Positions 18,952 through 24,000 of a DNA stretch of 24,000 nt are shown in pieces (positions within the stretch are counted from its first letter, which is position 1; every line of letters begins with the position of its first letter). The notes under the pieces are model-generated. The model did not search any database. It saw only the letters and a list, made by a program, of their open reading frames with translations, and was not told where the DNA came from. The DNA comes from Vagococcus salmoninarum. GTDB lineage: Bacteria; Bacillota; Bacilli; Lactobacillales; Vagococcaceae. The DNA is taken from NCBI RefSeq assembly GCF_003987495.1, contig NZ_NGJU01000009.1, positions 38,600-62,599 on the forward strand. Reading direction: 5' to 3'. Position numbers and translations under genes: made by a program.

Positions 18952-19551
18952 TTGGACACATCTTTGGAATTGTCTAATAACTTCCCTTATAAATTAGACA
19001 TGAAGCTTAATAATACTCATAAACACTTAATCAATGCTCTTTACCGTTTAGTTGAAAAATATCCCTTCGATACCTTGAGTGTTAAACAAATTTGTGATGA
19101 AGCTAGTGTTAGCCGTTCAAATTTTTATAATCATTTTGACGATAAATATCATTTACTACTTTTTTATCTAAATTTAATTTATCATAACTTACAAAATAAA
19201 ATTTCTTTTAATAATAATCGGCTAATCTTTGATGATTTTTTATTATACATTCAAGACCATGGCCTTTTTTTCAAATCCTTATTTTCATATGAAAACGGCA
19301 CGGAACTTAGTAAGTTACTTGAAAATGTAGTAACTGAAGACATTACTAGTTTTTTTAAAGATAGACATTCAAAAGATAACTTAGAAGATAATTTATTAAC
19401 ACAACTTCAAATTGTTTTTCTGACTGGCGCTTTAACTAACACGATACAATGGTGGGTCTGTCACGATTTTCCCGTTTCAATTGCTGAAATCAGCCAAGGA
19501 CTTGACGATCTGATTAAGCCTGATCTCTTAAATCCACCAAAAAAAGACTAA
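18952..19551 (+). CDS. TetR/AcrR-family transcriptional regulator
   Basis: 199 aa. N-terminal HTH (SVKQICDEASVSRSNFYNHFDDKYHLL). TTG start with GGAGG 9 nt upstream. TATAAT at 18920-18925. Confidence 0.85.
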   Translation: MDTSLELSNNFPYKLDMKLNNTHKHLINALYRLVEKYPFDTLSVKQICDEASVSRSNFYNHFDDKYHLLLFYLNLIYHNLQNKISFNNNRLIFDDFLLYIQDHGLFFKSLFSYENGTELSKLLENVVTEDITSFFKDRHSKDNLEDNLLTQLQIVFLTGALTNTIQWWVCHDFPVSIAEISQGLDDLIKPDLLNPPKKD

Positions 19552-19606: not shown

Positions 19607-21448
19607 TTACTCAGCAACTTCTTCAAATTGTGAATTATAAAGTGAGGCATAATAACCACCTGCCGCTAATAATTCATCATGGGTTCCTTGCTCTTTAATG
19701 TCCCCATCTTGCATATAAAGAATCTTATCAGCATCTTTAATTGTTGATAGACGGTGAGCAATGACAAATGACGTCCGTCCTGACATCAAGTTATTCATGG
19801 CCTCTTGAATCAAGCCTTCTGTCCGCGTATCAACAGAAGAAGTTGCTTCATCAAGAATTAAAATTGGTTTCTCAGCTAAGATTGCCCGGGCAATCGTCAA
19901 CAATTGCTTTTGCCCTTGGGAAATATTCGAAGATTCCTCATTTAGTTCCATATTATAGCCACCAGGTAAGGTTTGGATAAATTGGTGAACGTGAGCGGCT
20001 TTAGCAGCTTCGTAAACTTCTTCATCCGTTGCTTCTAGACGACCATAACGTAAGTTCTCCATGATCGTTCCTTTGAATAACCAAGTATCTTGTAAGACCA
20101 TCCCGATGTTTTTCCGTAAGTCACCGCGATTAAAGTCTTTAATATTATGGCCTTCAATTTTGATAGCGCCACTATTAACATCGTAGAAACGCATTAAAAG
20201 TTTAACCATCGTTGTTTTACCAGCGCCAGTTGGTCCCACAATCGCCACCATTTGACCTGGCTCAACGTGTGAGCTAAAGTCATTAATAATGTTACGATCT
20301 GCCGTATAACCAAAGTTAACATGTTCAAAATCAACCATACCTTCAACGTGATCCAATATGACTGGATTTTCAGCAAACTGAGCTTCTTCTTCTTCACCTA
20401 AGAATTCAAAGACTCGTTCCGCTGCCGCTGCCATTGATTGTAACATGTTAGACACTTGGGCTAATTGAGCAATCGGTTGGGTTAAGTTTCTAACGTATTG
20501 AATAAAGGCTTGGATATCACCGACGGTAATCGCGCCACTGTATGCCATCATTCCCCCGAAAATCGCGACTGCCACGTAACCTAAGTTACCGACAAAGTTC
20601 ATGATTGGTTGCATTAAACCAGATAGAAATTGTGATTTCCAAGCTGATTTAAATAAAATATCATTTTGTTCTTTAAATTCTTTTAAAGCATTTTCTTCTT
20701 CGTTAAAGAGACGAACGATGTTATAACCACCGATTGTTTCTTCAACTTTCCCATTAATTACCCCAAGATATTCTTGTTGGGTTTTAAAGTATTTTTGTGA
20801 GTTTTTCACGACGATCATAATTAAAATTAATGAAATTGGCACAATTAAGACGGCAATCCCGGTCATTTTAACTGAGATTGATAACATCATAATAATGACA
20901 CCAATAATCGTGAAAGTTGACGTAATCAATTGGGTAATTGATTGGTTCAAGGATTGACCAAGTGTATCCACATCGTTCGTTATCCGTGATAAGACTTCAC
21001 CTGTTGTCCGACTTTCAAAATAATTCATCGGCATCCGATTAATTTTCTCAGAGATTTCTTTCCGCATTCGGTAAGTGATTTTTTGAGAAATCGTCGACAT
21101 GATCCAACCTTGGAAAATTCCAAAGAGGGCTGCCACAACATACAAGCCTAGCATGAAGAGCAAGATGCCACCAATTTTCGTGAAATCAATGCCGCCTGTT
21201 CCTTGATATTTTTTAATTAAGCCATTAAATAATTCAGTAATGGCTGATGATAAAATTTTCGGTCCCCAGATATTAAAAACCGTCGATGCAATTGCAAAGA
21301 TGACTACTAGGATCATTGGAAGTTTGTAGCTACCAATATAGGCTGCTAGTTTCTTAATTGTTCCTTTGAAATCTTTGGCTTTTTCGACTTTCGCCATCGG
21401 TCCATGTCCACCGCCGCCACGAGGGCGATTTTGATTTTTTTCTGTCAT
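19607..21448 (-). CDS. Heterodimeric ABC exporter half-transporter (TMD-NBD), consensus-site subunit (LmrD/BmrD/TM288-like)
   Basis: 613 aa with a Gly-rich N-terminal tail. Walker A GPTGAGKTT, Walker B ILILDEATSSVD (catalytic Glu present), H-loop AHRLST. The signature is non-canonical: SQGQKQ. Confidence 0.9.
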   Translation of the reverse strand: MTEKNQNRPRGGGGHGPMAKVEKAKDFKGTIKKLAAYIGSYKLPMILVVIFAIASTVFNIWGPKILSSAITELFNGLIKKYQGTGGIDFTKIGGILLFMLGLYVVAALFGIFQGWIMSTISQKITYRMRKEISEKINRMPMNYFESRTTGEVLSRITNDVDTLGQSLNQSITQLITSTFTIIGVIIMMLSISVKMTGIAVLIVPISLILIMIVVKNSQKYFKTQQEYLGVINGKVEETIGGYNIVRLFNEEENALKEFKEQNDILFKSAWKSQFLSGLMQPIMNFVGNLGYVAVAIFGGMMAYSGAITVGDIQAFIQYVRNLTQPIAQLAQVSNMLQSMAAAAERVFEFLGEEEEAQFAENPVILDHVEGMVDFEHVNFGYTADRNIINDFSSHVEPGQMVAIVGPTGAGKTTMVKLLMRFYDVNSGAIKIEGHNIKDFNRGDLRKNIGMVLQDTWLFKGTIMENLRYGRLEATDEEVYEAAKAAHVHQFIQTLPGGYNMELNEESSNISQGQKQLLTIARAILAEKPILILDEATSSVDTRTEGLIQEAMNNLMSGRTSFVIAHRLSTIKDADKILYMQDGDIKEQGTHDELLAAGGYYASLYNSQFEEVAE

Positions 21449-21463
21449 TATATTCGCTCCTCC

Positions 21464-23845
21464 TTACTCAGCTTCTTCAATGCCTAATTCAGCGTTACTT
21501 AACTGTGATTGGGCAATTTCTTGATAGACTGTCGATGTTTCCATTAATTCTTCATGTTTCCCTTGAGCGACAATTTTACCTTGATCTAAAACGATAATAT
21601 TGTCTGCATGTAAAATCGTTGAAATCTTTTGGGCCACAATAATTTGCGTGGCGTGATTGACTGTTTCTGATAAAGCTTTTCGTAAAGCCACATCCGTCTT
21701 ATTATCTAAGGCTGAAAACGAGTCATCAAAAATCAAGATTTTAGGATCTTTAGCTAAAGCGCGAGCAATTGATAAACGTTGCTTTTGACCGCCTGAAACG
21801 TTCGTTCCACCTTGGGATATTTCCCGGTCATAGCCTTTTTCATCAGAATTAATAAATTCTTCCGCTTGAGCTATTTTAGCCGCATGTTTCATTTGTTCTT
21901 CAGAAATTACCGCATCACCAAATGTGATGTTTGAAGCGATATCGCCTGAGAATAACACGCCTTTTTGTGGCACGAAACCAATCAGTTCATGTAATTTATG
22001 TAATTTTAATTGTCTAACATCGATGCCGTCGATAGTAACTTGACCTTCTGTCACATCGAAGAGACGAGGAATCATATTAACAATCGTCGTTTTACCAGAA
22101 CCGGTTGAACCGATAATCGCTGTCGTTTCTCCTGGTTTAGCTACAAAGTTAATATCATGTAAGACATTTTCGTCGGCATCTCCATAACGGAAATTAACAC
22201 CAGAAAACTTAACTTCACCTTGGAAGTCAGCTTTATCTTGTGGATTACTTGGATCAGTAATCGTTGGTTCTGTTTCTAAAACTTCTTCTACCCGACCAGC
22301 AGCCACATTCGCTCTTGGTAAGATGATTGAAACCATTGATAACATCATAAATGACATTACAATTTGCATGGTATAAGTAATGAAGGCCATCATGTCACCG
22401 ACTTGAAGTTGCCCCATATCCATATTATGACCACCAACCCAAACGATTAGCACGGAAATACCGTTCATCATTAACATCATCATTGGCATCATAATCGACA
22501 TTGCTCGGTTAACAAATAACTGAGTCTTCATCAAATCAGTATTGGCACCATCAAAGCGTTTTTCTTCATGTTTTTCCCGAGAAAAAGCACGAATAACTGG
22601 TAAACCAGTAATAATTTCCCGAGAGACTAAGTTGACTCTATCAACTAAATTTTGTAATGCTTTAAATTTTGGCATTGTGAAAATTAAAAGCGTGCCGACT
22701 AACAGCATAACTGCTGAAACAGCGATTCCTAAAATCCAGCCCATGCCTGTGCCTGTTTTATAAACTTCATAAATCCCACCAATCCCTAAAATCGGTGCAT
22801 ACAAGACAATTCGCATAATCATCACGATTGCCATTTGCATTTGTTGAATATCATTCGTATTCCGGGTAATTAATGAGGCTGGTGAAAATTTATCCATCTC
22901 TGTGTTAGAGAATTGTAACGTTTTTTCGTACTGACCGACCCGTAAATTACGACCGACAGCGGCTGCGACTAATGATGCAATCAAGCCGACGATAATCGCT
23001 GTAACGGCTGCGACTAAAGTTAAACCTAACATTTTACTTCCGGTTTTCAGCATGTAATCTGTTTGAATTTTTTGAATATCCATGTCTAAAGCTTTGTATT
23101 CAGCTAAAGTTAATTGGATTCCCACGGTTTTCATTGAATCTGTTCCTAAATCCCCTAAGCCCTCGATTGTTGCTTCACGGGCTGCTTTAACTTTAGCAGG
23201 TAAGGCTGCCATTTTAGTATCAAGTTCAGCAGCAATTTTTTGCGCTTCCGCCCCTTTTTCTTGGGCTTCTTTAGCTAAAGCTTGAGCCACAGAGGCTTTT
23301 TCAGCGGCTTCCGTTGGATCAGTGGCAGCCATTGCTTCGGCACTAGCAGCTTTGGCTTGTTCGCCTAAGCTAGCCGCATTTGCACCAAGCTCTTGGGCTT
23401 TTTCGCCCTCTTGGCTAAAACTTGCAACTTCATCCATGATGACTTTCGCTTCACTGCCATTAGCCGACTCTTTAGATTGTGATGAAGCTAACATCATCAT
23501 TGGTAAATCAAAAATCTTGGCTAACTTAGCTTCAGTCATGCCATCTTTTAATTTCAATTGATAAACCTCAACTTTTTCACCGTCAATTGTCATTGTCTTC
23601 AATTGATAGTTTTCAGCAATTGTTGCTTTTTCCTCTTCAGTCATGAAGAGCTCAATCCCTTGCAGGGTTGTTTGTCTTATTTTAGTCGGAGTGGAATATT
23701 CCAGACCTCCTTGTTGAATACCTACGTCAACGATATCTGAAGTTAAGCCTGGCAAGCTTAACTCACTACGAGCTTGTACGAATAATAGTCCAAGAACGAC
23801 GATGACGGCGTACCAGTATTTGCCAAGATGTTTAAAAATCTTCAC
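21464..23845 (-). CDS. Heterodimeric ABC exporter half-transporter, degenerate-site subunit (LmrC/BmrC/TM287-like), with a large extracellular-loop insertion
   Basis: 793 aa with a GTG start. Walker A GSTGSGKTT, canonical signature SGGQKQ. Walker B is ILIFDDSFSALD (Asp replaces the catalytic Glu) and the H-loop is AQKIST (Gln replaces His). About 215 extra residues lie between TM1 and TM2. Confidence 0.9.
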   Translation of the reverse strand: MKIFKHLGKYWYAVIVVLGLLFVQARSELSLPGLTSDIVDVGIQQGGLEYSTPTKIRQTTLQGIELFMTEEEKATIAENYQLKTMTIDGEKVEVYQLKLKDGMTEAKLAKIFDLPMMMLASSQSKESANGSEAKVIMDEVASFSQEGEKAQELGANAASLGEQAKAASAEAMAATDPTEAAEKASVAQALAKEAQEKGAEAQKIAAELDTKMAALPAKVKAAREATIEGLGDLGTDSMKTVGIQLTLAEYKALDMDIQKIQTDYMLKTGSKMLGLTLVAAVTAIIVGLIASLVAAAVGRNLRVGQYEKTLQFSNTEMDKFSPASLITRNTNDIQQMQMAIVMIMRIVLYAPILGIGGIYEVYKTGTGMGWILGIAVSAVMLLVGTLLIFTMPKFKALQNLVDRVNLVSREIITGLPVIRAFSREKHEEKRFDGANTDLMKTQLFVNRAMSIMMPMMMLMMNGISVLIVWVGGHNMDMGQLQVGDMMAFITYTMQIVMSFMMLSMVSIILPRANVAAGRVEEVLETEPTITDPSNPQDKADFQGEVKFSGVNFRYGDADENVLHDINFVAKPGETTAIIGSTGSGKTTIVNMIPRLFDVTEGQVTIDGIDVRQLKLHKLHELIGFVPQKGVLFSGDIASNITFGDAVISEEQMKHAAKIAQAEEFINSDEKGYDREISQGGTNVSGGQKQRLSIARALAKDPKILIFDDSFSALDNKTDVALRKALSETVNHATQIIVAQKISTILHADNIIVLDQGKIVAQGKHEELMETSTVYQEIAQSQLSNAELGIEEAE

Positions 23846-24000
23846 TGTTGGTCACCTTCCTCTTTCGGAGTAATTTTGTGGGAGTAATCTATGAAAGTTG
23901 CAATTAGCTCAACTAACTTCTTCGTATCTGTTTCTCCCATTAAGTTAAAAATTTTGATCATCTTGTCATGCATCTCTTTTTTCTCTGATTTGGCAACTTC
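23842..24000 (-). CDS. 3' end of a small regulator gene (possibly MarR family), truncated by the window edge
   Basis: Open frame from the window edge: ...EVAKSEKKEMHDKMIKIFNLMGETDTKKLVELIATFIDYSHKITPKEEGDQQ*. Its TGA overlaps the GTG start of the ABC gene (GTGA). The helical C-terminus and the position upstream of an exporter suggest MarR-like, but the DNA-binding domain is off-window. Confidence 0.45.
   Translation of the reverse strand, partial: EVAKSEKKEMHDKMIKIFNLMGETDTKKLVELIATFIDYSHKITPKEEGDQQ

Follow-up and report, generated by a model that had tools for sequence, protein, structure and literature searches.

Exporter gene pair and ATP sites

The sequence analysed (the window) is a 24,000-nucleotide stretch of contig NZ_NGJU01000009.1 from Vagococcus salmoninarum. 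Near its end, a minus-strand gene with a GTG start (21464..23845) encodes a 793-amino-acid (aa) half-transporter of the type IV ATP-binding cassette (ABC) exporters. Between its first two transmembrane helices (TM1 and TM2) this protein carries an insert of about 212 residues, which is described here as a folded extracytoplasmic domain of a large, so far unannotated exporter subfamily. Coordinates of all features below are on the minus strand unless stated otherwise.

The gene was assigned from its open reading frame (ORF), from Pfam matches (PF00664 ABC_membrane, 7e-25; PF00005 ABC_tran, 1e-29) and from matches to solved structures. The ABC_membrane match begins at residue 272, equivalent to profile position 47, and ABC_tran covers residues 562-710. 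Foldseek searches with the whole 793-aa model returned 9iqg_A, 4q4j_A and 7ocy_A with E-values of 1e-39 to 1e-47 and TMt of about 0.8. About 18 exporter paralogs are encoded in the same genome. Their alignments start only at query residue 250-300, and none of them has the insert.

The partner gene (19607..21448) follows downstream after 15 nt and encodes a half-transporter of 613 aa, in which both Pfam domains are likewise found. Its ABC_membrane match is uninterrupted (residues 45-325, profile positions 1-273), so the partner lacks the insertion. The ATP-site motifs of the two subunits differ. The 793-aa subunit has the Walker B motif ...IFDD, the H-loop AQK and a canonical SGGQ signature, while the 613-aa subunit combines a consensus Walker B (LDE) and H-loop (AHR) with the degenerate signature SQGQ. 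In the long subunit the degenerate site is marked by Asp707-Asp708 (21722..21727), where Asp replaces the catalytic Glu, and by Gln739 of the H-loop (21629-21631); none of these three residues varies across 66 homologs. The pair is a heterodimeric exporter with one degenerate ATP site, and the outer domain is therefore carried by the degenerate-site, TM287/BmrC-like half. A preliminary description, made from the letters of the window, had placed the insert on this subunit and found none in the partner; both statements were borne out.

Boundaries and predicted fold of the insert

The nearest solved relatives of the core are MsRv1273c of the isoniazid efflux pump MsRv1273c/72c, TM287 and EfrC, which share 38-40% identity and represent the same degenerate-site half (PMC12038006; PMC4997860). 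The alignments with chain A of MsRv1273c, TM287 and EfrC extend over about 520-540 columns and leave out the insert; all three proteins have a short first outer loop. MsRv1273c (8wcw_A) aligns in two pieces, namely residues 16-55, covering TM1 through "...DVGIQQG", and residues 54-577, from "...kIQTDY" on; residue 55 of this chain directly precedes the equivalent of residue ~258. The extra segment therefore comprises residues 47 to ~258 (about 212 aa; 23072..23707) between TM1 and TM2. A search of the PDB with profile A4, in which core columns were kept, matched ordinary exporters only and served to fix these boundaries. The preliminary description had set them at residues 48-262, within a few residues of those found here, and had assigned the segment to extracellular loop 1. 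This agrees with its position between TM1 and TM2 of a core that matches solved type IV exporters with a cytoplasmic N-terminus, and by homology the insert would lie outside the membrane. The net charge of the outer domains of the family is mostly acidic (mean -14, 42 members), which fits such a location.

Within the insert, residues 146-226 are rich in Ala (35%), Glu (15%) and Lys (11%). Local GC content rises to 0.49-0.505 over this region compared with about 0.38 in the rest of the gene, and three plus-strand, i.e. antisense, ORFs of 60-79 aa overlap the insert. Both the raised GC content and the antisense ORFs had been noticed before. GC content at third codon positions (GC3) of the stretch is 0.27 and not above that of the remaining gene. 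The GC rise thus reflects the codon composition of Ala, and an origin from foreign DNA was ruled out as its cause. No tandem repeats were found in the DNA of the Ala-rich stretch, and the two halves of the hairpin described below aligned no better with each other than shuffled sequences did (101/500), which gives no indication of an internal repeat.

For structure prediction, AlphaFold2 was run on the full 793-aa protein with a 66-row alignment (predicted local distance difference test, pLDDT, 83.9) and on residues 45-256 alone (pLDDT 95.6; predicted template modelling score 0.83). Both models gave the same secondary structure. TM1 (about residues 11-44; 23714..23815) is part of a predicted helix spanning residues 2-44, aligns with residues 16-55 of 8wcw_A and ends in the family motif DIVDVGIQQGG, in which G42, Q44 and G47 are invariant. 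It is followed by a base subdomain (residues 47-123; 23477..23707) with a strand (55-57), helices (58-65 and 70-79), a beta-hairpin (80-87/90-97) and a further helix (105-123). P53, Y80 and Y95 of the base are kept across phyla. A Ser-rich linker (residues 124-129; 23459..23476) has the lowest confidence and conservation within the insert (pLDDT dip to 63-78; conservation 0.60). The Ala/Glu/Lys region is modelled as an antiparallel coiled-coil hairpin (23186..23458) of helices 130-173 and 177-220, with a turn at residues 174-176 and its tip at the invariant D176 (ATDP). From about 44 residues per helix, a length of roughly 65 Å is obtained by standard helix geometry. The return helix (residues 221-256; 23078..23185), which has invariant columns and contains the conserved TVGIQLTLAEYKAL with Y250, is continuous with the second hairpin helix (a single helix 177-252 in the model) and runs into TM2 (residues 257-310; 22916..23077). 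TM2 begins with the family-conserved Q261, Y264 and G269.

In an alignment of 12 homologs, a hydrophobic period of 3.45 residues was detected in both hairpin helices. The observed power was reached by 0/2000 and 19/2000 shuffled sequences, respectively, and the in-phase positions are invariant Ala or Leu. Periodicity and invariant residues together support a genuine coiled coil in the Ala-rich stretch as opposed to disorder. Conservation within Enterococcaceae is lowest in the hairpin region (0.68 versus 0.79-0.83 in the flanking parts).

Operon context, distribution and descent

The 3' end of a gene for a 149-aa MarR-family protein (PF01047, 2e-7) lies directly upstream of the exporter gene (23842..24000) and extends beyond the window. 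Its TGA stop overlaps the exporter GTG start by 4 nt (GTGA), and the ribosome-binding site AGAGGAAGG ahead of the GTG is located within the 3' end of marR. By gene order and stop/start overlap, the exporter pair is part of a MarR-linked efflux operon, presumably controlled by its MarR. In nearly all of 40 related loci a partner gene of about 600-640 aa directly follows the long subunit, and in most of them a same-strand ORF of 140-190 aa precedes it. This upstream ORF belonged to the MarR family in all five distant loci tested. The order marR, long subunit, partner recurs in loci of Lachnospiraceae, Erysipelotrichaceae and Chloroflexota, and apart from marR and the partner the neighbourhoods of the 40 loci showed no additional conserved gene. 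On the other side of the pair, a TetR-family regulator gene (TetR_N and TetR_C_8; 18952-19551, plus strand) is convergent to the partner gene and lies 56 nt from its stop.

Orthologs of the long subunit have 787-804 aa, and nearly all of those from Enterococcus and Vagococcus have exactly 793 aa, with rare and small indels. This length occurs in more than 100 Enterococcus protein clusters with 60-68% identity in the insert. In a sample of genomes of the order, 20 of 40 Enterococcaceae genomes carried the window-type insert, as did 2 of 35 other genomes of the family to which the window belongs; both of the latter are of its own genus, making 3 of 7 genomes of the genus with the window counted. 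None was found in the remaining families of the sampled order. A broader profile added 4 of 40 genomes of one further family in the order, with shorter versions. No match to plasmids was obtained by tblastn against 72,556 sequences. Neither E. faecalis nor E. faecium was represented by a protein among the named matches of the ortholog searches. A link to the seven heterodimeric exporters of E. faecalis studied by Hürlimann et al. (PMC4997860) was rejected for this reason, and their data set probably does not cover the insert-bearing family.

With a profile of the enterococcal insert, weak matches to its first 40-100 residues were obtained in other families of the phylum, always in frames of 710-780 aa. 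These proteins share a plan in which TM1 ends in IV(N/D)xGIQQxG and is followed by a conserved segment (P53, Y80, Y95), a variable middle, and a conserved helix (..Q.A....K.EY.A.G.D...Q..Y) that leads into TM2. Scanning one genome per species for this pattern revealed at least 589 loci, so that the domain is far from the rarity implied by the preliminary description. The best 80 of them belong to Lachnospiraceae, Oscillospiraceae, Erysipelotrichaceae, Peptostreptococcaceae, Clostridium, a Bacillus, Collinsella (Actinomycetota) and Anaerolineae (Chloroflexota), all of which are monoderm-type lineages. In 66 measured genes, complete frames had 716-797 aa, with one exception that ends early at 478 aa. 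The segment equivalent to residues 40-270 had 152-231 aa (median 188), and that of the window falls into the longest class. A diverse profile (A5) detected the domain in about 9% of the genomes sampled from the phylum (37 of 400) and in 25 of 278 genera, with E-values down to 1e-61. The frames that carry it, those of Collinsella and Anaerolineae included, measure 700-990 aa. Many of the carriers are gut Clostridia.

The middle region of the domain is shorter or of different composition elsewhere (Gln/Met-rich or Glu/Lys-rich). Its elongation to a coiled-coil hairpin is specific to Enterococcaceae and Vagococcus; in other lineages the corresponding part of the alignment is much shorter. Among the A5 matches, frames of up to 990 aa occurred. 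Frames of 845-990 aa were seen at G454:C5:63815-65053, G522:C66:2166-2771 and G629:C16:218104-218340, and in the first of these the domain profile was split in two pieces. Such frames and the split profile suggest that additional segments are inserted in the variable middle region.

A core tree was calculated from 66 insert-bearing proteins and ten paralogs from the window genome after removal of the insert columns. All 66 insert-bearing proteins fell on one side of a well-supported branch (98/95) separating them from the ten paralogs; this comparison is bounded by its sampling, as the rows lacking the insert were taken from the window genome only and the others were selected by the insert itself. 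The Enterococcus/Vagococcus clade (100/100) nests within a group of Lachnospiraceae, Oscillospiraceae and Collinsella and not with Bacilli-labelled rows, and the Collinsella copies likewise nest in the Clostridia-dominated group. This nesting points to operon transfer between gut bacteria. The tree fits a single origin of the domain with later transfer among gut-associated bacteria, and suggests that the Enterococcus/Vagococcus copy was derived from Clostridia-type donors.

Known relatives and possible function

Searches for known relatives of the domain yielded little. The window insert gave only noise in Pfam (E > 0.4), and 42 diverse inserts of the family gave isolated chance matches. No NCBIfam model matched the whole 793-aa protein at its cut-off, and no PDB sequence matched the insert at E <= 10. 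In Foldseek searches of the insert model, nothing was obtained from the PDB at E <= 0.001 (best E 0.08) and nothing from viral structures below E 0.09. The weak matches were generic helical hairpins of a designed binder, chemoreceptors and HlyD. When the insert was searched with phmmer against 1.84 billion cluster representatives, only four short fragments and not one full-length protein came back, despite the existence of full-length orthologs in the hundreds. Proteins with the insert may be clustered under representatives without it, and this search was of little use for judging the distribution. That the extra residues might turn out to be a common, already annotated domain had been named beforehand as an outcome that would overturn the initial view. 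They proved to be common and, by the searches of Pfam, NCBIfam and the PDB, not annotated. The domain of the window is thus a local, elongated version of an unannotated module that defines a large exporter subfamily of monoderm-type bacteria. Its anatomy as a folded extracytoplasmic domain, placed in outer loop 1 of the subunit with the degenerate site, is well supported with respect to position, boundaries, conservation, distribution, operon context and predicted fold.

In the preliminary description, large domains in this loop had been thought foreign to exporters of the LmrCD, BmrCD and TM287-288 type. This is contradicted by BmrD, whose domain between TM1 and TM2 (PDB 7M33) caps the exit and moves with ATP (bioRxiv 10.1101/2021.03.13.435271; PMC12644906). 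In a BmrD construct without the outer domain, stimulation of the ATPase by Hoechst was lost (same sources). Other literature on outer domains of this sort in heterodimeric exporters was not found, and for type IV exporters with an added domain a 2026 preprint names BmrCD as the example. Like the Vagococcus pump, BmrCD of Bacillus subtilis (PDB 7M33, 9CUS) is a heterodimer of type IV in which one ATP site is degenerate and a folded domain separates TM1 from TM2. However, the domain of BmrD, which is the canonical (consensus)-site half (bioRxiv 10.1101/2021.03.13.435271; PMC12644906), is beta-rich and shorter, whereas the Vagococcus insert is predicted to be mainly helical, has about 212 aa and is located on the degenerate-site subunit. 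Besides the lack of a sequence match, no BmrD chain was among the 50 Foldseek matches listed, and the alignment of the whole 793-aa model with 9cus_D spans the core only (537 columns). The two domains look like independent solutions at one topological site.

With respect to gene order, the locus resembles SatRAB of Streptococcus suis and RcrRPQ of S. mutans, in which a MarR-family gene is also found directly upstream of two ABC half-transporter genes. These MarR-linked heterodimeric ABC efflux operons of Firmicutes encode subunits of ordinary length that are not known to have an outer domain. The hairpin itself is reminiscent of those of the membrane-fusion or adaptor proteins HlyD and MacA and of chemoreceptors, which likewise consist of two long antiparallel helices in a coiled coil with small residues at its core. 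Structural matches of the HlyD and chemoreceptor type were not significant (E 0.4-1.4, TM-score 0.2-0.4), and these hairpins act in oligomers, whereas the Vagococcus-type pump has one hairpin per transporter.

By analogy with BmrD, the domain probably caps or gates the exit side of the pump and bears a stalk peculiar to its lineage; this is the reading we favour, with some reserve. Members of the family share a small alpha/beta base on top of TM1, a helical middle of variable length and a long return helix that enters TM2 with hardly a break. The middle has grown, in Enterococcaceae and Vagococcus, into a rigid antiparallel coiled-coil hairpin with an Ala/Leu core, which is probably a lineage-specific stalk or lever. 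Nearly continuous helices connect the domain with TM1 and TM2, and it should therefore ride on the TM1/TM2 wing of the transporter. In the inward-facing state it would then lie over the exit, from which it would swing aside once ATP drives the outward-facing state, and as a cap it would tune substrate release and its coupling to ATP turnover like the unrelated BmrD outer domain. The exported compound would probably be amphipathic.

Several points weigh against a cap. The analogy to BmrD is positional only, given a beta-rich domain on the other subunit with no similarity in sequence or fold. The models are of single chains and do not show where the domain points with respect to the exit, and AlphaFold can overrate its confidence for helices rich in Ala. 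Lineages differ strongly in the middle region (152-231 aa in the aligned segment), which may matter little for core function. It is unusual for a single hairpin of two helices, 65 Å long, to stand alone, and no member of the family is known to have an assigned substrate or phenotype.

Alternatively, the domain could be a docking or force-transmitting element, by which ATP-driven motion of TM1/TM2 would exert force on something outside the membrane or pass substrate on to it. The target could be a component of the wall or of teichoic acid, a lipoprotein or a secreted partner, with the stalk reaching into the membrane-wall space. The predicted stalk is rigid and conserved in length, has the invariant D176 at its tip and passes almost continuously into the transmembrane helices of the AlphaFold2 model, and the best 80 loci come from monoderm-type lineages only. 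Long hairpins are also contact elements of adaptors such as HlyD, itself a weak Foldseek match (E ~1). We nevertheless regard this role as unlikely, since no further conserved gene accompanies marR and the partner in the neighbourhoods examined, the stalk is lineage-specific with short or compositionally different segments elsewhere, and a single hairpin per heterodimer could not form a tube. Mechanotransmission is moreover generally known for type VII ABC systems, not for type IV. Somewhat less probable still is that the insert-bearing subfamily is no drug pump at all, and that its outer domain converts ATP-driven TM1/TM2 motion into work outside or hands an envelope lipid, glycolipid or peptide to an acceptor. 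If true, this would be a type IV counterpart of type VII mechanotransmission confined to bacteria without an outer membrane, with the enterococcal stalk as its reach element.

The Ala/Glu/Lys stretch might instead be a tolerated low-complexity expansion without a role of its own, with only the base and the return helix being of importance. The middle is the most variable part across the family and is filled with Gln/Met-rich or Glu/Lys-rich sequence in other lineages, its conservation in Enterococcaceae is lower than in the flanking parts, as given above, and frames of up to 990 aa hint at an insertion hotspot. Against this stand the nearly fixed length in Enterococcus and Vagococcus (mostly 793 aa), the invariance of heptad-phase Ala/Leu and of the turn residue with a significant 3.45-residue period, and the very confident predicted fold (pLDDT 95.6), which render a neutral filler rather improbable. 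An artefact, be it misassembly, gene fusion or a cytoplasmic segment in wrong topology, was prompted solely by the locally raised GC content and is extremely improbable. The identical 793-aa protein is present on many independent contigs, numbering in the dozens, and orthologs of the same length exist in dozens of species, including many of Enterococcus. The stretch does not differ in GC3 from the remaining gene, a single open frame runs from conserved TM1 to conserved TM2, and the cytoplasmic nucleotide-binding domain dictates a topology with the N-terminus inside. The ORF artefact or misassembly against which the preliminary description had cautioned is therefore excluded, to the extent that sequence data can do this.

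Outer domains on type IV exporters have been known from essentially one studied case, BmrCD, in which the domain shapes substrate release. The insert described here adds a second domain, unrelated to the first, which occupies the equivalent site but belongs to the opposite subunit, together with a large and so far unnamed subfamily that is defined by it. A confident fold model without a solved relative makes the domain a clean target for structure determination and deletion studies, and the conserved marR gene may offer a route to the inducer, and hence to the substrate, of these exporters.

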